NCBI GenBank assembly: GCA_012519455.1
Contig: JAAYQE010000119.1
Span: forward strand, 159 to 64,158
Length of the DNA stretch: 64,000 nucleotides
Source: Syntrophomonadaceae bacterium
GTDB lineage: Bacteria; Bacillota; Ch66; Ch109
Reading direction: 5' to 3'
Position 1 is the stretch's first letter; every line of letters begins with the position of its first letter. The position numbers and the translations under genes are program-made. The notes beneath the pieces were generated by a model that worked only from the letters and a program-made list of their open reading frames with translations, ran no database searches and was not told where the DNA came from. Below, piece by piece: positions 47,161-64,000 of this stretch.

Positions 47161-48219
47161 TTAATTAACCGTAAACTGCATTTGCACCGGTTGTTGCAAA
47201 CTTTTTCCCCCTGTGGATTTAATTTCTTTACTGAGGTTTAGAGTAAAAATTTGTCCAGGAGTATACCCCGTCCGTGGTGGTTTAACAACTACGGACTGTT
47301 GGTCCGGGCCGGGTTCTCTGGTTATACTAACCGGATAACCGCATTCATCGGTTACGATTACGTTTAATTTCGTTAGGGTGGTGGTATCGACCGGTAAATT
47401 AAACCGTATCGTCCATACTTTAAAAGGATCTTGGATTGTTTGAGCCTCCCAAATCTGAGGCGCTTCTGCTCCCGGCTCGGGCTGTGGCACCGGCGACTGG
47501 GTACTGTATTCCACATCTACACCCCGACTTTGCAAGGCCTCAATATGGACCAAGGCTAACGATCCGGGGCGAAGATCCAGATAATTATAAAACAGATCAA
47601 TGAAAGCTCCAGACCCCAGACCATTATTTTGACTGTTAAGCACTAGAGGAGTAATATCTCGGATTTGATTATTCCAAAGATATACCTCTTCTAGATTACT
47701 TAAACCCTGCAAAGCTGTGACCTCCGTGATCATATTTTCTCCGAGACTTAGGACTTGCAGGCCCGTAAGATTTACCAGGGCGGAAAGGTCACTGATTTGG
47801 TTTCCAGCAAGATAAAGCGTTTGTAGCCCATTAAGGTTGGCCAGAGGCGATAAATCTTCAATCTGATTATAACTAAGCTCTAACTCCTGTAAGCCGGTCA
47901 GAGAAGCCAACGCGGACAAATTACTAATCTGGTTCCCAGCTAGATAAAGACTTTCCAGGTTAACGGCGTATTCAAGACCGGTTAAATCACTAATCGTGCC
48001 TTGCTCTGCCGTTAAACTGGTTAACCCGGCTAAATCTCCTACCGACAAGGGGCTCGTACTTTTTCCCAGAGCCTCGAGTACCGCTGTTTCCAAACTAGGA
48101 TCATTAAAATTCACTATGTCTCCCGAACTTCCCGCAGCCAGGCTGGGTACTATCCCCAAATTTAAGGAGCAGATAAAAAACCATAAAACTAGAACTACGG
48201 TACGTACTCGGATAAGCAT
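47161..48219 (-). CDS. Secreted leucine-rich-repeat (internalin-like) protein with a C-terminal Big_5/SbsA-Ig-like module
   Basis: Signal peptide, then about 7 LRRs (LxxLxxLxLxxNQIxDLSxL), then ...FKVWTIRFNLPVDTTTL...YTPGQIFTLNLSKEIKSTGGKSL...QFTV. Confidence 0.75.
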   Translation of the reverse strand: MLIRVRTVVLVLWFFICSLNLGIVPSLAAGSSGDIVNFNDPSLETAVLEALGKSTSPLSVGDLAGLTSLTAEQGTISDLTGLEYAVNLESLYLAGNQISNLSALASLTGLQELELSYNQIEDLSPLANLNGLQTLYLAGNQISDLSALVNLTGLQVLSLGENMITEVTALQGLSNLEEVYLWNNQIRDITPLVLNSQNNGLGSGAFIDLFYNYLDLRPGSLALVHIEALQSRGVDVEYSTQSPVPQPEPGAEAPQIWEAQTIQDPFKVWTIRFNLPVDTTTLTKLNVIVTDECGYPVSITREPGPDQQSVVVKPPRTGYTPGQIFTLNLSKEIKSTGGKSLQQPVQMQFTVN

Positions 48220-48240
48220 CGGTTTCCTGGTTCAACCTCC

Positions 48241-49056
48241 TTACGGGTTATTCCCCTCGCTCGTTTCTTCGGCTGGTGTTGTTTCATCTTCAGCGGTGCC
48301 GGTGCTGCCATCTTCGGTAGTCCCTTCTTCAGTAGTACCGTCATTTATGGTTTCATCATCGGGATTGCTGGTTCCATCTTCAGTGGTTCCATCTTCAGTG
48401 GTTCCATCTTCAGTATTTTCGTCTTCAGTATTTTCGTCTTCAGTATTTTCGTCTTCTGGATCAATTATTTCGTCTTCCGTATCGGATTCAATCTGACTGA
48501 ATAAGCGATTCAGCAGTCCCGGAGAGATGACTAACCGCGCACGGGTGCTTTTTCCTTTGGTTAAGCTTACAGTATTACCATTAACTAGGGCTACTTTATT
48601 TTCCAGATCAATTTGAATCTGCTTCCCGTCTTTTTCTACTACCAACAGATTCGTCGTCTCGTCTAACGTAAAGTCAGCTCCGAAGCCATTGTTTATTGCG
48701 TTAACCGGTAGGAGTGCTCGCTGGTTCTTGATTACTTTAGAAGCTTTTTTCTCCTTATTTCGCTCCCGATTGTTTTCCTTGTTTTGTTTGTCTCCTTTAT
48801 TCTCTTCTTTGTTTTTCTCTACCTTACCCTTTTCCTTATCTTTATCCGGTTTACCCTGACCTTTATTCTTATCCTTGGTATCATCTTCAGCGATATTCTC
48901 TTCTTCAACCACCATTTGCTGAACATTAACGTTTTTTGCCTTTCCGGGCGCAGCGCCATTATTTCCCGGCCCACCTTTAGCTTCTACCAAACCGGCTGGG
49001 AATACAATAAGGGTAACGCTGATTAATAAGGATAGTAATTTTTTACATTTCGACAT
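48241..49056 (-). CDS. Secreted protein with a K/E-rich low-complexity region, a copper-amine-oxidase-N-terminal-like domain and C-terminal acidic T-E-D pentapeptide repeats
   Basis: Signal peptide. FTLDETTNLLVVEKDGKQIQIDLENKVALVNGNTVSL resembles the Cu_amine_oxidN1 fold. The C-terminus is (TEDEN)x3(TEDGT)x3. Confidence 0.55.
   Translation of the reverse strand: MSKCKKLLSLLISVTLIVFPAGLVEAKGGPGNNGAAPGKAKNVNVQQMVVEEENIAEDDTKDKNKGQGKPDKDKEKGKVEKNKEENKGDKQNKENNRERNKEKKASKVIKNQRALLPVNAINNGFGADFTLDETTNLLVVEKDGKQIQIDLENKVALVNGNTVSLTKGKSTRARLVISPGLLNRLFSQIESDTEDEIIDPEDENTEDENTEDENTEDGTTEDGTTEDGTSNPDDETINDGTTEEGTTEDGSTGTAEDETTPAEETSEGNNP
48370..48459. repeat. Six tandem 15-bp repeat units (three each of two variants) encoding the acidic pentapeptide repeats
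   Basis: ggttccatcttcagt x3 followed by attttcgtcttcagt x3. Confidence 0.8.
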
Positions 49057-49297
49057 CCACTAGCACCTCCATATAATTTGATCTATTTATCTAATCTTAA
49101 TTTACCAGTAAAATGCTCGTAATTCCATGCTCCGGAGGTCCTATTATCTTAGGTATATAGTTGGAAAAATGCCTATTTCTACAGCATAGAAAAATAATCG
49201 TTTTAACGTAAAACCAAAGAATATCGAGACCTTCTGAAAATCAAACCGTTTTCGGAGGGTCTTTCTTTTCCAAATTTTTTTATAGACAAAAGAAAAG

Positions 49298-49320
49298 TTA
49301 TATATTATCATTATAGTATA
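49298..49320. promoter_or_regulatory. Candidate Fur/PerR-type operator (AT-rich partial palindrome) in an AT-rich island
   Basis: gttatatattatcattatagtata contains an ATTATCA half-site of the Fur/PerR 7-1-7 box. The match is only partial. Confidence 0.25.
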
Positions 49321-49519
49321 CATTTATATATATTATGGAAAATTTTTATATTAACTGGCTAATTAAAATGATGCTTGTATGGGTTTGCTTAACATAAATT
49401 AAAAAAGGTTTAAATTATAAATATTGACATTTATTCTTCTTTAGTCTATTCTTAAAAACAGATCTAACCTTAAAGTTTATTTAATAACGTATTATTTTTA
49501 TTAAGAAAGGATCATGATT

Positions 49520-49960
49520 ATGAGACATTTGGCGGATCAAATTGAGGTAATGAAAAATAAGGGGTTTAAGGTAACCCACCAGCGCCTGGTCGTGTTAGAT
49601 TATCTACAGCATTCTAAAAAGCATCCCAGCGCAGAAATGATTTACAACGACTTAAAAGAAAAGTATCCTACGATGAGTCTTGCCACCATTTATAACACGT
49701 TGGAAATGCTCATGAAAATCAATTTAGTAGTTGATATTGGGGCGCCAGAGGAAAGACGCCGTTTCGATGGTATTTTAGTCGAGCATTCCCATTTTTTCTG
49801 CACCAAATGCGGCAAAATTGAAGATTTAACCGTTCCCGGTATAGAGCAGCTATTTGAAAAAGCGAAAGCCGCTCATCCTGGAACTATTAATCACTGCCGT
49901 CTGGACTTTTTCGGTTTTTGTGAAGAGTGCCAAGCACAAGAAGAACAAGCAGTTGAGTAA
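49520..49960 (+). CDS. Fur-family transcriptional regulator, PerR-like
   Basis: HQRLVVLDYL DNA-recognition helix and two CxxC pairs (HSHFFCTKCGKIEDL; HCRLDFFGFCEECQ). The whole protein is collinear with B. subtilis PerR as recalled. Start at the second ATG, 9 nt after AAAGG. Confidence 0.8.
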   Translation: MRHLADQIEVMKNKGFKVTHQRLVVLDYLQHSKKHPSAEMIYNDLKEKYPTMSLATIYNTLEMLMKINLVVDIGAPEERRRFDGILVEHSHFFCTKCGKIEDLTVPGIEQLFEKAKAAHPGTINHCRLDFFGFCEECQAQEEQAVE

Positions 49961-49998
49961 TAGGATTTATAAAACGTGGTTAGTTAAAAACTAACGGA

Positions 49999-50043
49999 TT
50001 AAACGCTTGATCAGGTTAAACACTTGATTCAGGATCGTTTAAT
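49999..50043. repeat. Tandem 17/18-bp direct repeats (TTAAACGCTTGATCAGG / TTAAACACTTGATTCAGG) bracketed by TTAAACG...CGTTTAA
   Basis: Seen directly between the PerR-like gene and the lipoprotein gene. Operator-like architecture. Confidence 0.4.
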
Positions 50044-50334
50044 TCGTTGGTAAAAAGGACCACCTGAAAGCCTTAAATTGGCTCTGGGCAGGTCTATTTT
50101 TTTTGCAAAAAATTAACGTTATATTTAGTTAGACAAAGCTTTCTTTTAATAAACTAAAATACCCCTGGATATTAAATAATTACGGTAAAAACAACCTATT
50201 TAAAAGGAAATTTAAAAATATTGCCGAATATAGATTTACCTAAATTTTTCAAAGGCCAATTACTTAATCAAAGGAAGGAGGGCTTAGAAAACTTTTCAAT
50301 ACGGGCCCAAGTTAGCTTAAGGAGGAAAAACATT

Positions 50335-51084
50335 ATGAGAAAAAAACGGTTTAGAAATAAAAAGTTGGTTTTGGTTTTGTCCCTTTTGATACTAACGAGC
50401 TTCCTTTTAACCGGCTGTGGCTCGAAATCAACCCCTGCCCCGGAACCCAGTACCCCGGCCACCCAAAGCGAAACCCCTGCGACCTCGAAGACGGAAAGCA
50501 TAGTAGACCTTTTAACTAAAGGGGAAAAAACTGAGGGAATTTATTACGATTTCACCGTTTCAGAAAATACAGAAACGTTACAAGGAAAAATGTGGATACA
50601 AGGCACTAAAGCTAAAACTGAAATGGTCGTAGAAGGGGAAACCATGATTAGCCTAATAGATGGTAATACTTTCTATACTTACCTGCCGGCGGAAAAAACC
50701 GCGCTTAAATTCACGGTCGACCAACAAACTGCCCAGCAAGCAAAAAACCAAAACCCCTACCTGGTCTTTTCTGAACTAAAAGATACTGTTGAAAACAAGC
50801 CAGATATTTACAAGGAATTAGATAGTGTCGTTTTTGACGGCGTAAAATGCCGGGTACTGGAGTATACAGACCCTCAAACTAAAGAACGCGCTAAAGTGTG
50901 GGTGCGCGAAGACTATGGTATTGTTTCTCGGGTAGAAGCCATCAATAACGATGGTAGCACCTGGGTCATGGAGGTAAAAAATATTAAAGTAGGCAGTCAA
51001 CCGGTAGAAGTATTCACCCTTCCCGCCGACGTGCCTATCACGGATATGGATGAAATGATGAAACAGTTGGGACAAAATAATTAA
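50335..51084 (+). CDS. Lipoprotein (LolA-like/DUF4367-like fold)
   Basis: AGGAGG 8 nt upstream. N-terminus MRKKRFRNKKLVLVLSLLILTSFLLTGCGS has a lipobox LTGC followed by a Pro/Thr-rich linker. Confidence 0.65.
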   Translation: MRKKRFRNKKLVLVLSLLILTSFLLTGCGSKSTPAPEPSTPATQSETPATSKTESIVDLLTKGEKTEGIYYDFTVSENTETLQGKMWIQGTKAKTEMVVEGETMISLIDGNTFYTYLPAEKTALKFTVDQQTAQQAKNQNPYLVFSELKDTVENKPDIYKELDSVVFDGVKCRVLEYTDPQTKERAKVWVREDYGIVSRVEAINNDGSTWVMEVKNIKVGSQPVEVFTLPADVPITDMDEMMKQLGQNN

Positions 51085-51196
51085 GATGCAAGAGGTATGT
51101 TTATTTAAAGGGGCAAAGTAGGATATAGTTTGGGAATAAAACGATATAATTAGGGAATAGAAAGATAAAGATATAGTTTGGGAATAGAAAATTTTT

Positions 51197-51248
51197 CAGG
51201 GGTAGGTCAGGAAAATAGTTTTTTCTGACCTACCCCTGATGTTTTAAG
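51197..51248. terminator. Bidirectional rho-independent terminator between convergent genes
   Basis: Perfect 14-bp stem CAGGGGTAGGTCAG / CTGACCTACCCCTG (51197-51210 and 51225-51238), followed by GATGTTTT on the plus strand. Confidence 0.7.
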
Positions 51249-53675
51249 TCATGCACCAGGGGGCCTCGGACCGGAGGCAGTAGTAAAATCAAGCCGCCAG
51301 CCGTGGACTAACCTTTTAACTCCATCCCGTTGTTTCACGTTATTACTGATGAAAAGCGTATAACCAGTGTCCGGCGCAAAAGGCGTCTGGTGCTTAACCA
51401 CTACCGTAGCTCCGCTCGCATCACCGCTCCAAATTTCCGGAACCACCGCAAAATCCTGTCCTTGCGCGGTCTGAATCCGGAAATAGCTTAAAGAAGTGGG
51501 ATCAACGGGTTGATTAAAACGGATTCGCCATTCCTTGTCTAGAGGTACTTCCGCGGTACCAGTGGTGCCTATCCATTGCTCATACTCCTCTTCTACCGGC
51601 AGCTGCAGCCCGGGATCATAGACGACCACCCCGGCATTTACACTGGCCAGCCCGCTGGACATACCGGCGGCAAAATAGACCCGGCCGCGGGTATCCACGG
51701 TCATAAGTTCTTCCTGCAGCTCGCTTACCGGGCTTACCGGGGCCAGGGCCTGGCTAAGATCCATATTGGCAGCTAGATCTCCGTTTAGAAAATGCAGGGT
51801 CCGGCCATCAAAAGCGCTACTGTCGCTGAGGGTCTCCCATTGGCCGTTTTGGGGATTATACTTTTGCTTGGCGGCGTTCCAGATCTGGCCCTGATCATCT
51901 TCGTAAACCCGATAACCGCTGCTGTAGCCCGAATTATCGCCGTTAGTAAAGGATTGCCATTGTTCCCCGTTTGCGGTCCTTTCCAGCAAGCTTACCCCAT
52001 ACCGGCCCTGCAGCCAGACCCGCTGCTGCCTATCCACCAGCACGCCGTAGTCCACGTAATCACTTGGCAGCCCGCTGTTATCTTGGGTAAAATGCCTCCA
52101 TGCACTGTGGGTGGGATTCAGATAATAAACCCCCTCGGCGGAGTAGAACCAGATACCGTCTTCCGCATCCCGATAGACCCCATAAAAGTAAACCTCCGAA
52201 CCCGGGAAGGCGGGCAGGTTCACCCATTCTTCCTGGGCCACATTATAGGCCAGAGGTTTTTGCCTTTGCGGGACAATAAAGATATGGTCCTGCGCATCAG
52301 CCACCACTCCTACAATACCGAATTCTCCCAGCTGTACGCGCTCAAATTGCTGCCAGCTACCGTCCGCCTTCAGCCGCGCTAGGCTGGGACAATCATAGGA
52401 GGCAAACCAGACCCCGCCTTGCCGGTCCGCAGCTACCCCGGCAATACGGTTGGAAGCCAGGCTGGTGCTGCGGCTGCGGTAGTCGTAGGAAATCAGTTGC
52501 TCGGTTTGCGGCTGCCCCTGGTCATTGAGCGGTAGATAGTGTACCCCGGTCCCATTGCCGGGAACACCAGGATTATAGCCGGTTACAAAGCAGATCCCCT
52601 TATTAGTGGAAGCTAGGGAAATAATGTCTTCGCTCTGGAGCCCCAGGCTGCTACCGGTATATGCGGTCCAGTTACCCCCGCTCTCGGTCGGGGTGTAACG
52701 CAGTAGGCCACCATAATAAAGCCCAAACCAGATACTGCCGCTTTTATCCTCGACCAGGCATATGACCTGGTTAGAGGTGGAGAACAGGCCCCGCAAGTCA
52801 TAATGCGCCCATTTTCCATCAGCCTGGTAACAATACACGCCTTGGGAAACATAGGCATTGGAGATAAACCACAAGTTGCCCCGACGGTCCTCCAGGATGC
52901 CGGTCACCGGGGTCTCCACCGGGGGAAGCGACTGCTGGTCAGGAAACAAGGTATTCACGTTGGCGGTATTCAAGAGATGGTCACCCATCTCCAGTCCATT
53001 GTTGCGACCGACCCAATACCGGCCCTGGCTATCGATCAAAGCATCGTTAAACATATAATTATTGTAGGAAGATTCCCGCGGCCGCACTGCAGCCAGCCGG
53101 TAAGACGCATCGATCAGGGCCAGACCGTCGTAAGATATAAGGAGAACCTGCAGGCTACCATCGTTTTTCTCCAGCAGACGGATGCGTTGGAAATCATTAG
53201 TCGACAGCTGTTGGTCGGTATTCGCTTGAGTAAAGCTCAGCCATTGCCCGTCAGCTTTTTCACACCAAACGCCTTTATCTTTCAAGGCATACCAAGTATT
53301 CCCCCGGGAATCGGGCAGGACATACACGACTTCAGCCGATAAGTACGGTTTGTGGATGAAGTTGATAAAGCCCGCTCCCAGGTAATTGTTTTTCTGGTTA
53401 TTGGTTATATAGTCGACCTTGCCGGTTTCAGGATCTAGGCGCCAAACACCCGGATCGTATTCTTCCACCGCACTCATCCACAGCTGCCCCTGCGTATCCG
53501 GGTTTATTTCCGCCGGACGGAAAGGGACGTGGTTGGTGCGCAAACGATACCAGGCAGCTTGGTCCGACTGCGTTTCCGCCATCACTAAGGAAGGAAGCGT
53601 TAAAAACAAAGCTCCAATAATGAAGAAACAGATAAAAATCGGGGCGTATCGTTTCGGATAGCGAGTAAAGTCCAT
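51249..53675 (-). CDS. Secreted beta-propeller protein (two-component-regulator-propeller/Reg_prop-like repeats) with a C-terminal Big_5 module
   Basis: Signal peptide. Multiple D..G.lW.g...G repeats (DSRGNTWYALKDKGVW; DRRGNLWFISNAYVSQGVY; DKSGSIWFGLYYGGLLRY; DRQGGVWFASYD...). C-terminal ...EWRIRFNQPVDPTSL...GYTLFISNNVKQRDGVKRL...DFTTAS. ATG at 53675 with GGGAGG upstream. Confidence 0.7.
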   Translation of the reverse strand: MDFTRYPKRYAPIFICFFIIGALFLTLPSLVMAETQSDQAAWYRLRTNHVPFRPAEINPDTQGQLWMSAVEEYDPGVWRLDPETGKVDYITNNQKNNYLGAGFINFIHKPYLSAEVVYVLPDSRGNTWYALKDKGVWCEKADGQWLSFTQANTDQQLSTNDFQRIRLLEKNDGSLQVLLISYDGLALIDASYRLAAVRPRESSYNNYMFNDALIDSQGRYWVGRNNGLEMGDHLLNTANVNTLFPDQQSLPPVETPVTGILEDRRGNLWFISNAYVSQGVYCYQADGKWAHYDLRGLFSTSNQVICLVEDKSGSIWFGLYYGGLLRYTPTESGGNWTAYTGSSLGLQSEDIISLASTNKGICFVTGYNPGVPGNGTGVHYLPLNDQGQPQTEQLISYDYRSRSTSLASNRIAGVAADRQGGVWFASYDCPSLARLKADGSWQQFERVQLGEFGIVGVVADAQDHIFIVPQRQKPLAYNVAQEEWVNLPAFPGSEVYFYGVYRDAEDGIWFYSAEGVYYLNPTHSAWRHFTQDNSGLPSDYVDYGVLVDRQQRVWLQGRYGVSLLERTANGEQWQSFTNGDNSGYSSGYRVYEDDQGQIWNAAKQKYNPQNGQWETLSDSSAFDGRTLHFLNGDLAANMDLSQALAPVSPVSELQEELMTVDTRGRVYFAAGMSSGLASVNAGVVVYDPGLQLPVEEEYEQWIGTTGTAEVPLDKEWRIRFNQPVDPTSLSYFRIQTAQGQDFAVVPEIWSGDASGATVVVKHQTPFAPDTGYTLFISNNVKQRDGVKRLVHGWRLDFTTASGPRPPGA

Positions 53676-53734
53676 GATCAATTCCTCCCTGAAATTTCGC
53701 TTTCGTCCTTGGCTGAACCCTTAGCCGGGCCTAA

Positions 53735-56700
53735 TTACTCGACCCGGCATTTGTTAGTTTTTAGCCAATTAATAATCTCGCTAGCCTTGGAACCCGCTGA
53801 TAAATCAAGCTTATCATTATCCAATATGCCTAAATATTTTAAAAGGGGCAGATTTTTTAAAACGCTGATATCGGTGATTTGATTTCTACTAAGGCAAAGG
53901 AATGTAAGTTTAGTTAAATTGGATAAGGCTTCGATATCTTTGATCAGGTTACCGTTTAGATTCAGATTATCTAAATTGGTTAATCCAGACAATGGGGTCA
54001 AATCGCTGATTTGGTTGTCGTACGCCTCAATGTCCCATAAACTGGTCAACCCTGATAGCGGGCTAATATCATCAATCGTGTTCACTGATATAATAAGAAC
54101 CTCCAGGTTAGCCATATTTGCTAATACGCTGATGTCAGTTATTTGATTGCATCTGAGCCAAAGCTCTTTTAAATTCCTCATTTGGCCCAATGGGGTAATA
54201 TCACTGATTTGATTGCCGCGCAGGTCAAGTTTCTCCAGGTTAACAAGTCCCGCAATTGGAGTTAGGTCGTTGATCAGACCGTGCCCTTTACTATAGCCAT
54301 CCTCAGAGGACAGTCTTAGGTTTGTTAGTTTTGTCAAACTAGATAAGGGGCTAAGGTCACTAATAATATAATTCGGTATCCAAAGGGTTTCAAGATTTGT
54401 TAAACCGGCTAGGGGGCTAAGGTCAATATGAAATTTAAAGTAGCCTTGATCCGGGTTTAGATAAAGGGTTTTAAGATTTGTTAAACCGGCCAGCGGGCTA
54501 ATATCAGAGATGTCGTTCCACGTTAGGTTGAGTTCTTGTAAGTTTACCGCATATTCTAATCCGGTTATATTGCTAATTTTTTTGTTACTGGCATCCAACT
54601 CCAATAAACCTTCCAGGTCCGATTTGATCAGATCGCCCGTGGGTTTATTCAGTTTAGCGCGGATAACAGCTTCCAATGCTGGGTCGGGAATATTAATCAC
54701 CTGGTCTCCCTGGGATACTTCTAAAATTACACTGATGCTGTCCTGGCCCAACAGCATCCCGGTCAAATCATACACCTGCACCTTGGGCTTGTAATTGCCC
54801 ACCCCGGTATAGGTATGGCTGATGTTGGAACCGGGGCCGGTTACACTTTGCACCGGGCTGCCGTCACCGAAGTCCCAGTCAAACCGGTAGGTGCCGGCTG
54901 GCGTTACCACCGCTTCAAAAGCATGGGTAGCTTCGGTAGCCCCGTCCTTTAATTCATAGGTGATTATCCGGGGCGGTAAAATAGAAACGGTTACCTCTTC
55001 CTTGGGAATGGTAATGGTAGCCATGGCTTGGGACATGGTGTTATCGTTTAGATCCAACATTTTTACCTGCAAGGTATAGCTACCGTCCTGCATATACTTG
55101 TGGCTAATAATCGTTTGGGCGTCTCCATTGAAAACCGGCACAATTTCGTTTCCCTGGCTTAAGTTGGATTCATCTTTGCTTTCCCCGTCACCAAAATCCC
55201 AGACAAAATTAACTGATGTATATTCCTTCGGAATGTTCTGGGCCTTTACGGTAAAATCATATTGCCGGCCTAACTGGGCTTCTAGTTCTGCCGGGTCAAC
55301 GGTAAAATCTAATTCTTTGACTTTCAGGGCCACAGACTTTCCTTCAGCTGTACCGTTGGAGACTAAGACAAAGAGTAACTGTCCCGGCGCTACCGTCACA
55401 ATTGTGGAGGTCGCGGCCTTTTGCAGAGAAGCCCTCGGCGCTGGCAGCCCGGTGATCCACTGGTGATCATAAAGCACAAACACATCGACAAATACCCCGG
55501 CAGGCAAATCTTCATCCAGTTCCAGGATTAAACTGCGGGATGGGGATGCACTGCCGATTTCCGGCTTGATGCCCCATAACTGCGCAGTGTATTTAGACAA
55601 ATTAAAGGTTTTAGACAAATTTTTCGTCGTTAGCGGCATCTCGGTTTGCTGGGCCATCTCATAAGGGGTCCGCCAGGTATCCGAACCTTCATGGGCCGGG
55701 CTGTCGCTGCTGAAGATCAGGTATCGCGCGAAATCACGGTAACATTCGGCCAGGGAGGTTCCCTTTTCTTGACGCAGAAAACTATCGATTACTGCAATCA
55801 TGTCGGTGCTCCAGGCGCCGGTGGTATGGTTCCAAAGCTGCATAAAACTAGCCCCTTTATGGCGCACCAGGTAATCAACAAAGCGGGCGCTTTGGTATTC
55901 ATGAACGCTGTCGGTGGTCCCCATAGATTTTTGTAAGTAGGTTTCGTTTATGGCTACATATTTTTTGGTCCCCATTATTTCCGCGGCCGCATAGTCAGCG
56001 GTGGCTTCCACCCACCAGCGGTTTAAAGCCATGTTGGCAAAGGTCAGGTACTGGTTTTGGGCGGCATGGAAAAATTCATGGGCGCAGTCGTGCTGTAGTT
56101 CCGTTAAATTATCGTACTGGATAGGGATTTCGATGTTTTTGGAAAACCAGCCCCAGTTGGCGGTTGCGTCCGTACCCCAGTCGTCTATATATACTTTGGT
56201 CATGGCGGGCAGTTTAAAACCGGTGCCACCATATGTTTTGTATTGAGCATAGGCATCCACCAGGGAGGTTCTGGCATTAGTCACAAACTGGTAGAGATAG
56301 TCCGTGACGTAATCGGGATCTTGAGGCGCTCCGATCAGTTTGGGCGCATTTAAATTCTGGTTAAAATAAATCTTAAAATTAGGGGCGCTGGTTACCACCA
56401 TGTTATCTTCCAAGCCGAAAATTGACCACAGGGATAAGTGGTTAGTCGATACGATAATCTCGTGGTTGTCTTGGTCTACCGTGAAGTCTGTTTCTATCCA
56501 TCTTTGATTTTCCTCATCAAAATAGGCGACCACCAGTTGGTCGGCCGGTTCATATGCAGCGGTTAAGCGGGAGGGGTCGTATTTAAAGCGCAGGGTTAAG
56601 TCCCCGATAAAGGCTGCTCCCAAGGAAATATTATAAGTAGCGTGGGTTTCCAGATCGTTAAATTCATGCCGCTTGGCCCCACTAACCTCTTGGATCGATA

Positions 56701-57220
56701 CCGGGGTGCCGCTACTGACGGTATTGGCTGGAATTTCAACGGAAGCCTTATCCTGGTAGGTAACAACCTTACTTTCATTAGGGTTATCGATGACTCCATC
56801 TACTCGCCCTAATACGGTTAATTGCGCCGGTGCTTCGGTTACAAACTCCTTCTTCGCCGGCTGCGCTAGTACTTTTCCTGATTGGGATTTTACTCCTTCA
56901 ACTATTAAGGTGTATTTAGTATTGGACTCGTAGCCGCCCGTAGGTGGTTTTACTTTGACCGATTTACCGTCAGCAAGGACTTCCGGAGCCGAATCGAATA
57001 CTTTTTCTCCGCTGCAGCTGTTAACTACTTTGATACGGTCTGAGGTTACCGAATCTTGATCAATAAAATCATTAAACTTAATGGTCCATTCCTTATTAAC
57101 GCTGATATCACCGTCGGACGGAAAAGTTTTGGTTTCGGTGGCACTGGCGAACGCATAGGTCGAACTAAGCAATATAAAAGTCAGTAACAAAAAAAATAAC
57201 CGCAATTTAATCTTACCCAT
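53735..57220 (-). CDS. Secreted multidomain zinc metalloprotease (gluzincin HExxH-x19-E) with an N-terminal Big_5 module, two PKD domains and C-terminal LRRs
   Basis: ATG at 57220 with AAGGAGG upstream. Signal peptide, then ...EWTIKFNDFIDQDSV...KYTLIVEGVKSQSGKVL (Big_5). HEFFHAAQNQYLTFANMALNRWWVE has thermolysin spacing. Two PKD signatures (ISHKYMQDGSYTLQVKMLDLNDN; ISHTYTGVGNYKPKVQVYDLTG). C-terminal DISPLAGLTNL... LRRs. Confidence 0.7.
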   Translation of the reverse strand: MGKIKLRLFFLLLTFILLSSTYAFASATETKTFPSDGDISVNKEWTIKFNDFIDQDSVTSDRIKVVNSCSGEKVFDSAPEVLADGKSVKVKPPTGGYESNTKYTLIVEGVKSQSGKVLAQPAKKEFVTEAPAQLTVLGRVDGVIDNPNESKVVTYQDKASVEIPANTVSSGTPVSIQEVSGAKRHEFNDLETHATYNISLGAAFIGDLTLRFKYDPSRLTAAYEPADQLVVAYFDEENQRWIETDFTVDQDNHEIIVSTNHLSLWSIFGLEDNMVVTSAPNFKIYFNQNLNAPKLIGAPQDPDYVTDYLYQFVTNARTSLVDAYAQYKTYGGTGFKLPAMTKVYIDDWGTDATANWGWFSKNIEIPIQYDNLTELQHDCAHEFFHAAQNQYLTFANMALNRWWVEATADYAAAEIMGTKKYVAINETYLQKSMGTTDSVHEYQSARFVDYLVRHKGASFMQLWNHTTGAWSTDMIAVIDSFLRQEKGTSLAECYRDFARYLIFSSDSPAHEGSDTWRTPYEMAQQTEMPLTTKNLSKTFNLSKYTAQLWGIKPEIGSASPSRSLILELDEDLPAGVFVDVFVLYDHQWITGLPAPRASLQKAATSTIVTVAPGQLLFVLVSNGTAEGKSVALKVKELDFTVDPAELEAQLGRQYDFTVKAQNIPKEYTSVNFVWDFGDGESKDESNLSQGNEIVPVFNGDAQTIISHKYMQDGSYTLQVKMLDLNDNTMSQAMATITIPKEEVTVSILPPRIITYELKDGATEATHAFEAVVTPAGTYRFDWDFGDGSPVQSVTGPGSNISHTYTGVGNYKPKVQVYDLTGMLLGQDSISVILEVSQGDQVINIPDPALEAVIRAKLNKPTGDLIKSDLEGLLELDASNKKISNITGLEYAVNLQELNLTWNDISDISPLAGLTNLKTLYLNPDQGYFKFHIDLSPLAGLTNLETLWIPNYIISDLSPLSSLTKLTNLRLSSEDGYSKGHGLINDLTPIAGLVNLEKLDLRGNQISDITPLGQMRNLKELWLRCNQITDISVLANMANLEVLIISVNTIDDISPLSGLTSLWDIEAYDNQISDLTPLSGLTNLDNLNLNGNLIKDIEALSNLTKLTFLCLSRNQITDISVLKNLPLLKYLGILDNDKLDLSAGSKASEIINWLKTNKCRVE

Positions 57221-57475
57221 ATCCGAATCCTCCTTTTTGTGGTCAGACTTTACTTGGTAACTGACGGTAAAAGCTGTTTTTATTTTTCTTAATTTTACCA
57301 CGAAAACTTTGTCTAATAAAGGAAAAAACCTCTGGAAATTGGTAGTTCTTAGAAGTTTTTTCCTTTATTGTCCGTCATTTTTATAGAATATATCGAGATA
57401 TCCGGTATCTATAGTTCAATCACAAAGGATGTTCAAGTACGGTTACGCTTTCTGATTTTAGGTAGTATCCGGTGC

Positions 57476-59668
57476 CTATGGCTTAATCACAAAGGGCATG
57501 GCTACCGCTGTTTTCAAAGCCGTTCCATCCGCATCTTGCAGCGACGTTTTGATGTGCAGAGTGTATCTAGCGCCTAGAGAATAGTTTTGTTGCGGCTTAA
57601 CCGTCACCTTCTTGTTACCGTCCGACCAATTAAGCTCTACTTGGACCCGATTGCCGTCGGCCGCTGTCACATAAATATTGTCAGCAGCTGTAGCGGTGTT
57701 AACCGGTTTATTAAATTGAACGTTCCAGTTCTTGCTCGCTTCTACCGGCCAGTTGTCATAACCCTGCTGCCAACTCGGCTTGCGACCGATATCCAGGGAG
57801 TAGCTGCGCTTGGTCCGGTCGGGCTGGGTTACCTCTACGGTCACAGGGTTCCAGCCGGCAGCCAGGTTTACCACCCCGCCGCTCTGCACCGCCCCGTTTA
57901 ACTTAACCACGGCGGTGGTACCAGCTACAGCGGTAGGTACTACTTTAACCACGTCTACGGTGTTTTCCACTTCGGTGCGGTAAGTAAAGGTATTGCCGGC
58001 AAACCCGGTCAAGTATTCAATGCCGCTCCCGTCCGCCTTGCCTTTCACGCTTAGGCCAGTCAGGGGCTCGGCCAGGCGGAGACGCTTAATCTCAATCGTA
58101 TAGGTTAGGTCGTCCTTGCCCTCTTCGCTGACGACGATTTCAACCTTATTCAAACCTGGATCAACGACCAGGTTGACGATTCCGTCATTCTGCTCCGTGC
58201 CGTTTACCTTGACCACAGCGGTGGCACCGGCAACCGGAGTCGGGGTGATTTTAACCGCCTCCAAGGGATTCTCCACAGTCATCGTGTAACCGGTAGTGTT
58301 AGGCGTAAAGCAGGTAAGCAGTTGGGCCGGGCCGCTGCCGTCCGCCATTTGTACGCTCAGACCGGTGAGGGGCCGGGCCAGCTGGGGAATGCCTTCCACC
58401 TGTACCGGAAGATAATTGTCGTGCTGTTCTATCCCCAGTTGGAAGGAATCGTTTGTACCCCATCCCCATACCGTGCCATCGTTTTTCAGTGCCAGGGAGT
58501 ATTCGCACCCGGCTGCGATGGATACAACATCGGTAATATCCTTGGTCTCTACCGGCGTACTACTGGCATCGTCCTCTCCGTCACCTAGAGCACCGTAGTT
58601 ATACCCCCAGGCCCAAACTTTTCCGTCCTTTTTCACAGCCAGACTGTGAGTTTCGCCGCAGGTGATCGCCTTTACATCACTTAGATAACCCAAATTATAA
58701 AACCCGTGGACCTGCACCGGGATCGAGCTATGATTTTCCGTTTCATCGGTCAAGCCGTCACCCAGGCGCCCTACATAGTGTCTTGCTCCCCAAGCCCACA
58801 CCATACCGTCGTTTTTTAGCGCCAGGGAGAAATGATCTCCAGCCTCAATGCTTTTAACGTCAGACAGGTTTAATACCTGAACCGGATAAATTTCATCGGA
58901 GAAATCTTCTCCATTACCCAGGACACCCCAATTACCACCACCACCCCAGGCCCATACCGTGCCGTCGTTCTTCAACGCCAAGCCGTGAAAACGGCCGCAG
59001 GCGATAGCCTTAACGTTATCCAGATACCCGTCGCCTCCCAGGCCTTTGACTTTTTCCGGGGTGTTGGATTGGGATTCCAGGCTTCCCCTGCCCAGTTCAT
59101 TATCAGTGTTATTACCCCAGGCCCATACATAACCGTCTTTATCCAGCGCCAGGGAGAAAAATTCCCCACCGGCAACGGCTGTCATATCTTGCAGGCCTGG
59201 GATTTGTTGCGGCGAACTATGATTTTGCGCGGCCATTTGACCCAACTGGCCTTTTTCATTATTTCCCCAGCCCCATACGGTGCCGTCGTTTTTCACGCCC
59301 AGGGAATGCCAGCGCCCGCTAGCAACGTGTTTAAATCCCTGGTTAAACCCCTCGTCGGTTAATAAGACCGGGGGTTGTTGACCATTTCGTGGGTCCCCTC
59401 CGGTAATGATCTCACCATTACCCACTTGACCATAATCATTTTTTCCCCACCCCCATAGCTTCAGGTCCTGCCGGAGGAAAAAACCGGTTGCATCGCCCGC
59501 CACTACCTGCGGCGCTATTAACTGGGTTCCCTCCACTACACTGCAGTTTCTGACCATAGAATCCTGGGCCACCGCCGGCATAACTGCTCCCAAACTCAAC
59601 AATAGGGATAATAAAAATACCAGAGCGATCGATCTACCCCTGTTTTTAAAAAACCATTTCCTTTGCAT
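57476..59668 (-). CDS. Secreted RCC1/BLIP-II-repeat beta-propeller protein with two internal Ig-like segments and a C-terminal Big_5 module
   Basis: AAAGGAG upstream of the ATG at 59668. Signal peptide. Seven or more RCC1-like repeats (GWGKNDYGQVGNG; WGWGNNEKGQLG; WAWGNNTDNELGRG; WGWGTNDSFQLG...). C-terminal ...NWNVQFNKPVNTATA...RYTLHIKTSLQDADGTAL...PFVIKP. Confidence 0.75.
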   Translation of the reverse strand: MQRKWFFKNRGRSIALVFLLSLLLSLGAVMPAVAQDSMVRNCSVVEGTQLIAPQVVAGDATGFFLRQDLKLWGWGKNDYGQVGNGEIITGGDPRNGQQPPVLLTDEGFNQGFKHVASGRWHSLGVKNDGTVWGWGNNEKGQLGQMAAQNHSSPQQIPGLQDMTAVAGGEFFSLALDKDGYVWAWGNNTDNELGRGSLESQSNTPEKVKGLGGDGYLDNVKAIACGRFHGLALKNDGTVWAWGGGGNWGVLGNGEDFSDEIYPVQVLNLSDVKSIEAGDHFSLALKNDGMVWAWGARHYVGRLGDGLTDETENHSSIPVQVHGFYNLGYLSDVKAITCGETHSLAVKKDGKVWAWGYNYGALGDGEDDASSTPVETKDITDVVSIAAGCEYSLALKNDGTVWGWGTNDSFQLGIEQHDNYLPVQVEGIPQLARPLTGLSVQMADGSGPAQLLTCFTPNTTGYTMTVENPLEAVKITPTPVAGATAVVKVNGTEQNDGIVNLVVDPGLNKVEIVVSEEGKDDLTYTIEIKRLRLAEPLTGLSVKGKADGSGIEYLTGFAGNTFTYRTEVENTVDVVKVVPTAVAGTTAVVKLNGAVQSGGVVNLAAGWNPVTVEVTQPDRTKRSYSLDIGRKPSWQQGYDNWPVEASKNWNVQFNKPVNTATAADNIYVTAADGNRVQVELNWSDGNKKVTVKPQQNYSLGARYTLHIKTSLQDADGTALKTAVAMPFVIKP

Positions 59669-59836
59669 CGCGAACTCCTTTCTCTAGGTTAAATTCAGGT
59701 TAAATTGCGCTTCTACACTGCCTTTACTCCTTTACATCGCTTCTCCCCCTCAAACCTTAAATTAAGATAATATTTCTACATAAAACAAATTATTCCTGCT
59801 GATTTTGCTAATTTCTACATGTTTTTGGCTGCCACA

Positions 59837-60659
59837 CCTGCCACAGGGACGGTCCTTGTGGCAGGTAGAAGCACCCGAAAAGTGCTATGATGAAACAGGG
59901 GGTAATACTATGCCAAGAACGGCCAGAAGAAAAAGCGAAACAGGTATATATCATTTGATTTTACGGGGGATAAACCGACAAACTATTTTCGCAAATGAAG
60001 AAGACGCTATAAAATTTATACAAACTCTAGAAAAGTATCAAAAGAAGAGCGAATTCAAATTATACGCATACTGTTTAATGAGCAACCATGTGCATCTGCT
60101 GATGAAGGAAGAAAAAGAAGCCTGCTTGGAACTCGATGAAAAGAAGAAATGGAAAGACCAGGAGGCCATTGAGTTAATCAAGTATGTGTGCCAGATAAAC
60201 CATTGCAATGAACTGCAGAATCTGGATCGAGAAAAACAGGGTGCATATTTAAAACAGCTCTGTACCGAGGGTTTATCGGTCAGACAAATTTCTAGAATAA
60301 CTGGGATTGGCAGGTGGGTAATACAGAAGGCAGTTAAAAGTTGAAATACAGCACCACAACACCCATTTTCTCTAATGTCTCGCGTGTCTCGCTATATTTG
60401 GATTGTTTTAATGGAGCCAACTCAAATTCATAATAATCATCCCTTAGGCTGAAAAAAATGGCGCCGCAAAAAATAACCAAGGCAGACCCTGTAGCACAAG
60501 TCAGCGTTAAGGAATAAACAGGGCAGACCCTGTAATAAGTAGGCGCTAACTGACTCAACAGGACGTTAGCGCCGTAAACAACAAATCAGATATAGCTTAT
60601 GTTGACAGTATGTGACCCTAGCCAGCCACAAGAACCGTCCCCGCGGCTGCCGTGGCTGG
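59837..60659 (+). mobile_element. IS200/IS605-like or RAYT-like element: a Y1 HuH transposase-like gene bracketed by mutually inverted hairpins
   Basis: Left hairpin CCTGCCACA-gggacggtcct-TGTGGCAGG (59837-59865). Right hairpin CCAGCCAC-...-GTGGCTGG (60622-60659), whose reverse complement contains GGGACGGTTCTTGTGGCTGG, homologous to the left hairpin. Internal duplicated about-40-bp units (GGCAGACCCTGTA x2) and a 9-bp stem GGCGCTAAC/GTTAGCGCC. Confidence 0.5.
59910..60344 (+). CDS. IS200-like (Y1/HuH) transposase-related protein with a C-terminal HTH
   Basis: GGGGGT RBS 8 nt upstream. ...GIYHLILRGINRQTIFANEEDAIKF...FKLYAYCLMSNHVHLLM (HuH motif). C-terminal LSVRQISRITGIGRWVIQKAV is a helix-turn-helix. 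Confidence 0.65.
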   Translation: MPRTARRKSETGIYHLILRGINRQTIFANEEDAIKFIQTLEKYQKKSEFKLYAYCLMSNHVHLLMKEEKEACLELDEKKKWKDQEAIELIKYVCQINHCNELQNLDREKQGAYLKQLCTEGLSVRQISRITGIGRWVIQKAVKS

Positions 60660-62276
60660 TTACTGTAGATCTTTAATAGTAAAATTCATTTTAATTTGCT
60701 TGCCTAATGGTGACCCAGTTAGGCTTTTGACCTTCGAACTGATGAAAAGGGTATAGGTCTGCCCTGGCTGATAGTAGAAAACTCCATCAGCCTTCATGAT
60801 AACCGAAAGCTTATTAAATGTTAGTTCCGGTTTTATATCTTCAACTATCTGGCCGGTCTCATCTTGGACATAAAAGTTATTAGAGGTAACTGTCTCCGGG
60901 TCGATTTCAGTACTAAAATTAATAATATAATTTTTATTAGTCGCTACGTTTGTTTTTTCTTCCCATAAAACGGTCTGCACTTGGCTACCAATAGTATCAT
61001 CGTCCATAATTAATACCCTGGTGCGAATGTTATCACCAATAATGGCGTTCCCCGTCACATTTCTCAGATATACATATAGGGTTTTAATATCCCCGGCCGC
61101 ATCATTATCCACAATTGTCACCGGGATGGTCATTGAGGTAACTCCAGGCTCGAAAACCAACGTGCCTTTAGTTTCAAGGTATTCATTCGGTGCTTTGGCA
61201 CTGCCATCTAGTGTGTAGTACTCCACAGTTACCGTTTCCTGCATATTGCCGGTGCGAGTAACGGTTATCATCGCCGTGCCGTCATTTTCCTTTACCTCCT
61301 GAGTAAGTTTTGAAAATTGAAGAACACCAGATTCGACTGACATAAAACTTGCGCCTTTGATAAATACGTTGGAATCAAAAATATAATCGCCCGCATCAGC
61401 GATAGCCATCCGGATCGTATTCATCTGGCCCACCTTAACAGGGGCAGTCACGGTCAGTACTGTAGTCAGACCGTCCATCTCCGTCATTATCTGACCACCG
61501 AATTCGTTGTCTCTATAATACTGATTGTGCAGATCGTTATTTATATTATTGATAGCTACCGGGAAGTCAGTATTAGGAATCAAAGCAATGTTCTTACCGT
61601 TAAGGAAAAAACCGAATACATCATTGAACTCGGTACCAACATACTCATTATATTCATCAGAAGAAAACACATAATCAAATGACAAAGTATTCTCAGAGGG
61701 AATAAAATCGAATTCAAGAATTGTAGCATCATTGGTTTCATATCCAGGAACTAGCAGGTTTAAGTGTTCATCACCGGCAAGATCGTTCACATGGGTCATA
61801 TTACCCTCAGCATTTGGACCATCCGCATACCGTATATTGCCGGTACTTAATATAACTCCCTCGTTAAAACCAATAATATTTCCATCCGCCGCGGTAAAGG
61901 AGCCTGCAGCAACGTCGGTGCCTGTGTATCTTACATTTACTATTTGTACACCTTCACCCATTATTTGCTGCACTAATTGCTCTGCTGTCTGCTTGGAAAG
62001 ATCCTTGGTGATAATATATTTAGTGCCTTTTTCGGGATATAAGTCCCCATCATTCCACCCGTCATCAATGTCATCAATGTCATCAAAACTCTGCGTTTTA
62101 ATGACATTATTAGCGACTAGGTCTATAGTTCGAGTTCTTTCCAAAGTATTCTCTTCCTGATTAGACCCTTGTGCGAAAGCCCTCGGCGATCCTATTGCAA
62201 AGATCAAGAAAAAAACCATCGCCGTTGCTATAGCTGTCGCAATTGTGGCCCCCATTTTACTTTTAGGCTTATTCAT
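60660..62276 (-). CDS. Secreted protein with an N-terminal beta-sandwich domain, a Calx-beta domain and a C-terminal Big_5 module
   Basis: Signal peptide (ATG at 62276, 9 nt after AAGGAGG). Calx-beta signature YYTLDGSAKAPNEYLETKGTLVFEPGVTSMTIPVTIVDNDAAGDIKTLYVYLRNVTGNAIIGD. C-terminal ...NYIINFSTEIDPETV...TYTLFISSKVKSLTGSPL...NFTIKD. Confidence 0.7.
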   Translation of the reverse strand: MNKPKSKMGATIATAIATAMVFFLIFAIGSPRAFAQGSNQEENTLERTRTIDLVANNVIKTQSFDDIDDIDDGWNDGDLYPEKGTKYIITKDLSKQTAEQLVQQIMGEGVQIVNVRYTGTDVAAGSFTAADGNIIGFNEGVILSTGNIRYADGPNAEGNMTHVNDLAGDEHLNLLVPGYETNDATILEFDFIPSENTLSFDYVFSSDEYNEYVGTEFNDVFGFFLNGKNIALIPNTDFPVAINNINNDLHNQYYRDNEFGGQIMTEMDGLTTVLTVTAPVKVGQMNTIRMAIADAGDYIFDSNVFIKGASFMSVESGVLQFSKLTQEVKENDGTAMITVTRTGNMQETVTVEYYTLDGSAKAPNEYLETKGTLVFEPGVTSMTIPVTIVDNDAAGDIKTLYVYLRNVTGNAIIGDNIRTRVLIMDDDTIGSQVQTVLWEEKTNVATNKNYIINFSTEIDPETVTSNNFYVQDETGQIVEDIKPELTFNKLSVIMKADGVFYYQPGQTYTLFISSKVKSLTGSPLGKQIKMNFTIKDLQ

Positions 62277-62361
62277 AGCCATTATCCTCCTTTTTTGTTA
62301 AACCTTATACAAAAATCTCTTTTCATTTTACCACATCAGGTAATAAATGTAACTACAAGAA

Positions 62362-64000
62362 CTATGGAATAACCGTAAACGACATTTTAATCGCCTTTTT
62401 CAAATTGCAATTGCTGGTTGATCGAACGCCTTTCTCAATATAAAGGAAATAATCACCGGGAAGGTAACCATCGGGATGCGGCATTATGACTATTTTATTA
62501 TTCTGGGCCTGGTGAGGGGAAGTGATGACTGCTTGGCCGAGAACCGTTTTTACATAGATGTTTTGGGAAAAACTTAATGGATCTACGTCCTGGTTTAAGG
62601 TAATAGTAAAAACATGATCTGGTTTTACGGTTAGCTTCTTTTCCCAAAGTTGATAATCCCCTACGGGAAGGGCAGAATATCTTTGATATTTGAAGGTCAT
62701 GCAAGTGACATTGCCATTCGTATCGAGGGTTAGGTCGATATGGGTAATTAAGAATTTGTAATAATGCTCACCTACTTTAGCCCAGTAGGCATGCCCAGAA
62801 ATAGCGGGAATCTCATCCGCATATCCGGAAGCGGGGGGAGTGATGAGCTGATCCAGAGTACTGCTGCCCATATCAATAAGGTTTCCTCTTAAGCTTGGAT
62901 TTGCAGACGTACCGACCAGTTCTAGATCGTCACTATATTGGTCCGGGTTTCCTGTCCAGAAGCTGAAAGCCTCGCCCTTAGTAAAGTCAAAAGCGGCCCC
63001 GGTGCTCCAGTGGTTACTCAAAATAATGGAGTCAGGGTCAGTATTAATATTAATGCTATAACTGGCACTGGCCGTAGCGCTGTCGTTCATGCCCTCTTTA
63101 CTGGCTTTGGCTTTGATGGTCAGGCTGTTGTTAACTTGGATAGGCGCTGTGTAGATGTTTGAGTTATCCGTTGGTTCTGTGCCATCAGTAGTATATCGAA
63201 TGGTGGCCCCATTAGTGGCTGAACTGATGGTTACCTGCTGGACCGTGGTGTAAGAACCGCCGACCGGGTTAAAAACTGGAGTTTCCACGCTTTCAACGGG
63301 AGTGTCCGACCTGCCGGCCGCATAACATACAAAGTAACTTTTCCCGTTGTAATTATTGTAGGCGGCAAAATAAATGCGTCCCTCTTGATCCATAATCAGG
63401 TTGGAGGTAATCGAACGGTAATCATCATCACTCGAGTTAATGGACTTTTGCCAGAGCAGCTGCCCGGAGGCATTTAATGCATAAAGATGGGCCGATTGGG
63501 CTCCAAAATAAACATTGTCTTTTGTATCGACAATTGGACTGCGGTATGGTGTGCCAAGTTCACTGACTTCCCAATTTTGTTGACCGTTAGATATATTGTA
63601 GGAAGACACCTTGCTGTCCGTCCATTCCAAGGCAATAGCCTGGTTATTCTCGTTTACAGCCGGTTCACCGCCTAAGCTTCGTCCTAGCTTGAGTTCGGCT
63701 GGCCAAAGCATTGCCCCCGTGACCGGGTTTAGTATGTACAACCCACTATAATAATGGTTTGCAATCAAGAGCGACCCGTCACTGGCCACAACCGGGGTTC
63801 TATTGGTATGCATATTACTAATAGACCAGACGATATCGCCGCTGGCCGCATTGAGTGCACTAACCGTTCCCCACTCATTTCCCGCATAGATTACTTTCTC
63901 GTCATTGGAAAGGGTACAACCATACAAGTAACCGCCGCCAATATCGGTATTCCAATACTCGGTTCCATCCTTCCCGTTAATTGCATAAATTTGGTTAGTC
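62362..64000 (-). CDS. Secreted PQQ-like beta-propeller protein with a chitobiase/Fn3-like (CHB_HEX_C-type) domain and a C-terminal Big_5 module; the 5' end lies beyond the window
   Basis: The frame stays open upstream of the ORF-track TTG at 63927 (...TNQIYAINGKDGTEYWNTDIGGGYLYGCT...). PQQ/BamB-like repeats (...GDIVWSISN..., ...GAMLWPAE..., ...GQLLWQKS...). IRYTTDGTEPTDNSNIYTAPIQVNNSLTIKAKA is a CHB_HEX_C-like motif. C-terminal ...HVFTITLNQDVDPLSF...DYFLYIEKGVRS...SFTVIP. Confidence 0.7.
   Translation of the reverse strand, partial: TNQIYAINGKDGTEYWNTDIGGGYLYGCTLSNDEKVIYAGNEWGTVSALNAASGDIVWSISNMHTNRTPVVASDGSLLIANHYYSGLYILNPVTGAMLWPAELKLGRSLGGEPAVNENNQAIALEWTDSKVSSYNISNGQQNWEVSELGTPYRSPIVDTKDNVYFGAQSAHLYALNASGQLLWQKSINSSDDDYRSITSNLIMDQEGRIYFAAYNNYNGKSYFVCYAAGRSDTPVESVETPVFNPVGGSYTTVQQVTISSATNGATIRYTTDGTEPTDNSNIYTAPIQVNNSLTIKAKASKEGMNDSATASASYSININTDPDSIILSNHWSTGAAFDFTKGEAFSFWTGNPDQYSDDLELVGTSANPSLRGNLIDMGSSTLDQLITPPASGYADEIPAISGHAYWAKVGEHYYKFLITHIDLTLDTNGNVTCMTFKYQRYSALPVGDYQLWEKKLTVKPDHVFTITLNQDVDPLSFSQNIYVKTVLGQAVITSPHQAQNNKIVIMPHPDGYLPGDYFLYIEKGVRSTSNCNLKKAIKMSFTVIP

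Follow-up and report, generated by a model that had tools for sequence, protein, structure and literature searches.

The gene, its product and the active site

The analyzed DNA, a 64,000-nucleotide stretch of contig JAAYQE010000119.1 from a Syntrophomonadaceae bacterium (hereafter the window), carries on its minus strand a gene for a large modular protein, which the initial annotation described as a secreted protease of about 1160 amino acids with a thermolysin-type HExxH-x19-E site. A long open reading frame (ORF) spans 53735..57301, and the ATG at 57220 was chosen as its start (Table 1). The longer version beginning with GTG at 57301 was rejected, since the recorded protein differs from it: the exact 1161-residue sequence, found by cluster look-up, is NCBI NLK52197.1 from a Syntrophomonadaceae metagenome-assembled genome (MAG), where it is annotated only as 'PKD domain-containing protein'. 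The predicted size was thus confirmed by an ORF of 1161 codons and an ATG preceded by a Shine-Dalgarno-like sequence, and secretion is supported by a putative signal peptide. The latter was called by eye together with a hydropathy scan and is the sole strongly hydrophobic segment of the protein; one marginal window near residue 602 falls within a PPC-like β-sandwich. The scan of the region for promoters and terminators gave what is expected from shuffled sequence, and megablast with the gene against plasmids returned no match.

Table 1. Features of the gene and its product, with positions in the window
Feature	Residues	Positions	Strand	Basis or remark
Complete coding sequence	1161 aa + stop	53735..57220	minus	
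Shine-Dalgarno-like AAGGAGG		57229..57235	minus	8 nt upstream of ATG; read directly from sequence
Sec-type signal peptide (putative)	1-25	57146..57220	minus	MGKIKLR, hydrophobic core, then AFA before S
Big_5 Ig-like domain	31-128	56837..57130	minus	PF13205, 32.6 bits vs cutoff 23.6, E 1.4e-7
ZU5/GAIN-B/FIIND-like β-sandwich (predicted)	~134-271	56408..56821	minus	C-terminal boundary approximate
H261-L262-S263, putative cis-autoproteolysis site	261-263	56432..56440	minus	Candidate scissile bond between L262 and S263; conservation, secondary structure, published motifs
Gluzincin catalytic domain (predicted)	~272-522	55655..56407	minus	
HEFFH, putative zinc-ligand His (two) and catalytic Glu	381-385	56066..56080	minus	Sequence, family alignment
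E405-A-T-A-D409, putative third zinc ligand ('glutamate helix') and ExxxD Asp	405-409	55994..56008	minus	Sequence, AlphaFold2, alignment
H440-E-Y442, conserved His/Tyr, candidate transition-state stabilizers	440-442	55895..55903	minus	Alignment
PPC/collagen-binding-domain-like β-sandwich (predicted)	~523-636	55313..55654	minus	
PKD domain 1	639-721	55058..55306	minus	Pfam
PKD domain 2, Pfam-matched part (PKD/PKD_4)	774-823	54752..54901	minus	Pfam
Internalin-type LRR domain with N-terminal cap, 12 repeats	839-1156	53753..54706	minus	Pfam, NCBIfam

Every module named in the initial annotation, i.e., Big_5, two PKD domains and leucine-rich repeats (LRRs), was recovered by Pfam. The gathering thresholds were passed by PKD (PF00801, 55.9 vs. 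23.5) and PKD_4 (PF18911, 49.5 vs. 27), and LRR_4 matched seven stretches over residues 839-1156 (E 2e-37), in which 12 units of approximately 22 residues each were counted. The partial matches to the NCBIfam internalin A/H models were confined to these repeats. Pfam found nothing over residues 130-636, even when three sub-regions were scanned alone at E<=10. These approximately 500 residues had been read as a single protease region; in fact they comprise three domains, ZU5-like, catalytic and PPC-like, two of which had been missed.

The HExxH-x19-E motif could be read directly from the sequence, with E405 following HEFFH after exactly 19 residues and D409 adding an ExxxD element. Conservation was counted, here and below, in 166 domain hits realigned to the family hidden Markov model (HMM). 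H381, E382, F384 and H385 were each present in 166/166, position 405 was occupied by Glu (148) or Asp (18) and position 409 mostly by Asp (126) or Glu (33), whereas Y442 was found in 167/168 and H440 in 148/168. Because of this family-wide conservation HEFFH has to be regarded as a selected active site and not as a chance motif.

Residues 130-640 were modeled with AlphaFold2 from the family alignment, and the model was of good internal quality (mean predicted local distance difference test score, pLDDT, 88.7; predicted template modeling score, pTM, 0.86). It places HEFFH within the predicted helix 372-388 and E405/D409 within the next long helix 401-416, which suggests the active-site-helix and glutamate-helix arrangement of gluzincins. 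In structural comparison the highest figure, 17.7, was obtained with lugdulysin (M30, 256 residues aligned), followed by M1 aminopeptidases (14-15), thermolysin (M4, 12.8), M9 collagenases (~11-12) and an M36 protease and LasB (M36 and M4, ~11), with M60 and IMPa well below M30, M1 and M4. The best Foldseek matches were M1 aminopeptidases (E 2e-7, probability 1.0). Structure prediction, which had been proposed as a check of the zincin assignment, thus returned a thermolysin-like fold.

The predicted helices, the conserved putative ligands and the fold match to M30, M1, M4, M9 and M36 enzymes uphold the earlier proposal of a functional gluzincin; its kinship with thermolysin itself did not hold, as no M4 HMM matched. 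The protein is very probably a secreted, active gluzincin of clan MA(E), and its family is absent from all curated libraries.

The ZU5-like domain and its conserved turn

Fold comparison predicted residues ~134-271 to form a ZU5-type β-sandwich. The comparison figures for the GAIN domains of adhesion G protein-coupled receptors (GPCRs) were 11.2 for CD97, 10.2 for BAI3, 10.0 for CELSR1, 9.0 for GPR126 and 7.9 for GPR97. A weak match to Casc1 covered the same strands (E 0.05; range 0.05-1.2 in family-profile searches of PDB sequences). Near the C-terminal end of the domain the residues T259-N-H261-L262-S263-L-W265 include a four-residue turn between the predicted strands 254-259 and 264-270. 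T259 was conserved in 147/165 and H261 in 158/166 domains, position 262 was Leu or Phe in 164/167, and position 263 was Ser (111), Thr (44) or Cys (7) in 162/167, with only three Ala. The positions of this T-x-H-[LF]-[S/T/C] turn were conserved in 95-98% of the 166 domains, and the H261 and L262 columns belong to the four most conserved of the whole domain. Some members, e.g., P0045, have exactly HFS at the turn.

The cleavage sites of FIIND (PMC3210808) and GAIN (PMC3321182) are described as lying in just this position, close to the C-terminal end of the domain in a tight turn that leads into a long strand. In FIIND the P1 residue is buried, and the N-O or N-S acyl shift depends on Ser, Thr or Cys as the nucleophile (PMC3210808). 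Position 263 is restricted to Ser, Thr and Cys and the His at 261 is 95% conserved, a pattern characteristic of the nucleophile of an acyl shift and not of a residue kept for packing. On these grounds we tentatively propose cis-autoproteolysis of the ZU5-like domain between L262 and S263, a possibility to be taken seriously even though we do not rate it as probable.

The explanation that we regard as probable for the protein as a whole is an exported multi-domain gluzincin with a ZU5-like, catalytic and PPC-like core, appended modules and a putative self-cleavage step. The metallopeptidase would be exported via Sec. The predicted zinc ligands are H381, H385 and E405, while E382 would act as the general base and D409 would orient a His ligand; Y442 and H440 probably stabilize the transition state. 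Big_5 precedes the core, and the most likely task of the two PKD domains and the 12-repeat LRR solenoid that follow the core is to place the enzyme at its target, a protein or polymer. The mechanism of self-cleavage would be that of GAIN, PIDD and FIIND domains, an N-O acyl shift with H261 as the base, the buried L262 as P1 and S263 as the nucleophile. After cleavage, the protease piece would stay bound non-covalently, via the embedded strand 264-270, to the N-terminal piece (Big_5 and most of the sandwich), and this may allow release or activation of the protease.

Several observations weigh against parts of this explanation. No curated peptidase HMM (M4, M30, M1, M9 and others) matched the protein, even at E<=10. 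The Pfam models of ZU5, GPS and FIIND likewise failed on residues 130-290 at E<=10, and the best structural matches of the ZU5-like domain were the non-cleaving ZU5 domains of ankyrin and UNC5. UNC5b also has Leu at the position equivalent to P1 (PMC3210808), so that part of the H-L-S motif may be structural. Finally, the role of Big_5 as a tether is conjecture, since the protein has no recognized wall or membrane anchor: no LPxTG motif, SLH domain or second hydrophobic (transmembrane, TM) segment was found in its 1161 residues, so an LPxTG or TM anchor was rejected after the motif and hydropathy scan. The surface tethering suggested initially was therefore not borne out.

The best surviving alternative is an active gluzincin whose ZU5-like domain does not cleave but serves as a structural, binding or prodomain-like element, H-L-S being kept for folding. 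Many ZU5 domains, those of ankyrin and UNC5 among them, do not self-cleave, and we hold this alternative to be quite possible, short of likely. It has to contend with the nucleophile-type residues at 263, where seven Cys stand beside three Ala, with the accompanying His at 261 and with a turn geometry that agrees with the published cleavage loops.

Compared with the autoproteolytic ZU5, GAIN and FIIND domains of PIDD, NLRP1, CARD8 and the adhesion GPCRs, the domain described here lacks the GPS disulfides, has Thr instead of Cys at P4, escapes the corresponding Pfam models and is fused to a zinc protease; cleavage is putative in its case. Bacterial ZU5 autopeptidases were predicted in surface enzymes by Zhang et al. 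in 2012 (PMC3482391). The partners listed there are glycohydrolases, lipases, phosphodiesterases and toxins, but neither a zinc protease nor this divergent version of ZU5 is among them. The literature found on bacterial ZU5 cleavage consists of computational predictions only, with no experimental follow-up.

Relation to known peptidases and distribution of the family

The sole curated model that touched residues 130-636 was NCBIfam MXAN_6640_HExxH (NF045524; E 3e-10, 40 bits vs. a cutoff of 140). It matched 36 of 49 family members, in all cases below the threshold, and flagellinolysin (10/49, weak) and DUF6055 (4/49) matched fewer; in the member P0045 DUF6055 maps onto the catalytic region. 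Among curated models, only MXAN_6640 and Pfam DUF6055 pick up the catalytic region from its sequence, and both families are themselves uncharacterized. The literature search on MXAN_6640 found no paper that mentions it, and the one for a lugdulysin structure paper gave nothing usable. Lugdulysin/hyicolysin (M30; PDB 7bb8) is among the closest structures, yet the sequence identity is only 10%, the Pfam scans gave no match to Peptidase_M30, and our protein adds ZU5-like, PPC-like, PKD, LRR and Big_5 domains.

An M1-like aminopeptidase, i.e., an exopeptidase, was considered because M1 enzymes top the Foldseek list with a similar order of β-sandwich, catalytic domain and β-sandwich, and because the only PDB sequence matches were M1 enzymes (F3 and aminopeptidase A, E ~0.03), aligned at a GAMEN-like 'TDATANWG'. 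A thermolysin-like domain between β-sandwiches is indeed common to our protein and the M1 aminopeptidases tricorn factor F3, ERAP1, IRAP and LTA4 hydrolase. However, our protein lacks a GxMEN motif, with ATANWG in place of GAMEN and no Glu, and differs further in its spacing of x19 instead of x18, in the ZU5 fold of its N-terminal sandwich and in the absence of a helical domain IV; in the phmmer alignment, moreover, the HExxH motifs do not fall in register. Membership in M1 was thus rejected and appears quite improbable.

A non-catalytic adhesin, with a zincin that only binds ligands, is about as improbable, since the catalytic and ligand residues are all intact and invariant across the family; its variant, a glycoprotease of the M60/IMPa kind, runs against both the low structural ranking of M60 and IMPa and the lack of any M60-like HMM match. 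The least credible candidate, a thermolysin-family (M4) endopeptidase, has in its favor the HExxH-x19-ExxxD spacing, which alone does not assign a peptidase family, and was rejected because Peptidase_M4 and M4_C did not match at E<=1 (whole protein) or E<=10 (isolated domain), thermolysin is not the nearest structure and no FTP/PepSY propeptide is present.

The word-indexed search yielded 23 homologs, mostly hypothetical lipoproteins from Dehalococcoidia/Chloroflexota MAGs. With the exhaustive profile search the number of clusters (formed at 50% identity) was 404 for E<1e-30 and rose to 969 when the limit was relaxed to E<1e-10. The zinc-peptidase family to which the protein belongs is uncurated, counts hundreds of members and extends over anaerobic Chloroflexota, Bacillota, Acidobacteriota, Planctomycetota and archaea. 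The closest match in the search of genome contigs was 44% identical. Core relatives of approximately 30% identity were found in Heliorestis acidaminivorans (NZ_WBXO01000002.1; L008), a cultured heliobacterium whose copy offers a cultivable source, and in archaeal MAGs, including Thermoplasmatales (L009 and L010).

The ZU5-like region directly preceded the catalytic domain in 159/184 domain hits (~86%). N-terminal anchors were frequent: a lipobox-like N-terminus was found in ~60/169, and in ~15/169 cytoplasmic zinc-ribbon or FHA domains are followed by a TM segment. Both are rough counts obtained with crude regular-expression and hydropathy rules. P0084, P0045 and other members have a cytoplasmic double zinc ribbon or FHA domain and a TM helix before the ZU5-like domain, in a type II topology. 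The C-terminal appendages vary (PKD, TIG, MORN, F5/8-C with cohesin and dockerin, Lcl_C and LRR). With both ends variable, the constant unit consists of the anchor-side region, the ZU5-like domain, the zincin and the β-sandwich, and this order would be expected if the anchor and the enzyme were joined by a ZU5-like hinge able to cleave itself.

The repeats at the C-terminus share with class 1 internalins (InlA, InlH) the 22-residue LRR unit and the N-terminal cap (NF033189, E 6e-49, partial). In contrast to internalins, our protein scores only 167 bits vs. a cutoff of 1600, has no match to the inter-repeat Ig region and no LPxTG, and its LRR array is a C-terminal appendage of an enzyme.

Neighboring genes and implications for the family

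The initial annotation noted a Big_5 module throughout the locus, and a Big_5-like module of one subtype was indeed present in six consecutive minus-strand genes (47161..63999). Its pattern, KxW.I.FN..vD...YTL, lies at the C-terminus in five of them and at the N-terminus only in the protease gene. The passengers in the five are LRR; a Reg_prop propeller; RCC1 with Cadherin-like domains; Calx-beta; and a PQQ-like propeller with CHB_HEX_C. Such a distribution is suggestive of a surface-protein island whose members share one module for anchoring or sorting.

It had also been suggested that the LRR unit closely matches that of the neighboring LRR protein (47161..48219) through exchange of modules within the locus. 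The likeness was confirmed (46% identity over 176 amino acids), but a recent exchange was not: the gene has no nucleotide similarity to its neighbor, and blastn with it found nothing at E<1e-3 elsewhere in the window. The ortholog P0031 (62% identical) already has the same architecture, a core-PKD-PKD-LRR layout scored without Big_5, and its LRR array is 57% identical to ours, with shared irregular repeats. As this array is closer than that of the neighbor and has the same layout and irregularities, the LRR array was inherited with the gene, and a recent exchange was rejected.

The window is otherwise ordinary Bacillota chromosome, with genes for CodY, UvrABC, flagellar proteins and nucleotide-sugar enzymes. 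A 365-residue protein encoded next to the flagellar genes (FlgK-like, flagellin-like) at 28383..29480 (minus strand) gave two P-loop NTPase matches, at residues ~31-66 and 204-250. Inside the surface-protein cluster there are also a gene for a Cu_amine_oxidN1-domain protein (48241..49056) and a plus-strand ORF of 287 amino acids without a Pfam match (50221..51084); the Cu_amine_oxidN1 domain is typical of cell-envelope proteins of anaerobic Bacillota. The GC skew is approximately -0.2 over 1-48 kb and approximately 0 over 50-58 kb, where the genes still lie on the minus strand, and the GC content has a low of 0.386 at 48-50 kb. This shift within 48000..58000 may mark a compositionally distinct insert or be an effect of amino-acid composition.

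For the family as a whole, a more speculative and rather doubtful idea is that it constitutes a bacterial counterpart of GAIN/FIIND, in which an anchor-adjacent ZU5-like domain cuts itself at H-L/S and the protease is then held only non-covalently, by a single β-strand. The enzyme could be shed or switched on when force acts, when the LRR/PKD modules bind a ligand or when the sandwich unfolds, and the anchor would be a lipid, a TM helix or Big_5. Should self-cleavage prove false, the analysis would still provide a useful annotation, namely a clan-MA family that is new and whose domains are mapped. If the idea is true, no self-cleaving tether of a bacterial protease would have been described before, and the GPS site of adhesion GPCRs would gain a prokaryotic relative amenable to experiment, which would serve as a simple bacterial model of GAIN/FIIND chemistry. 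It would also extend the 2012 prediction of general ZU5 processing among bacterial surface enzymes and suggest a new way in which extracellular proteases are regulated or released.

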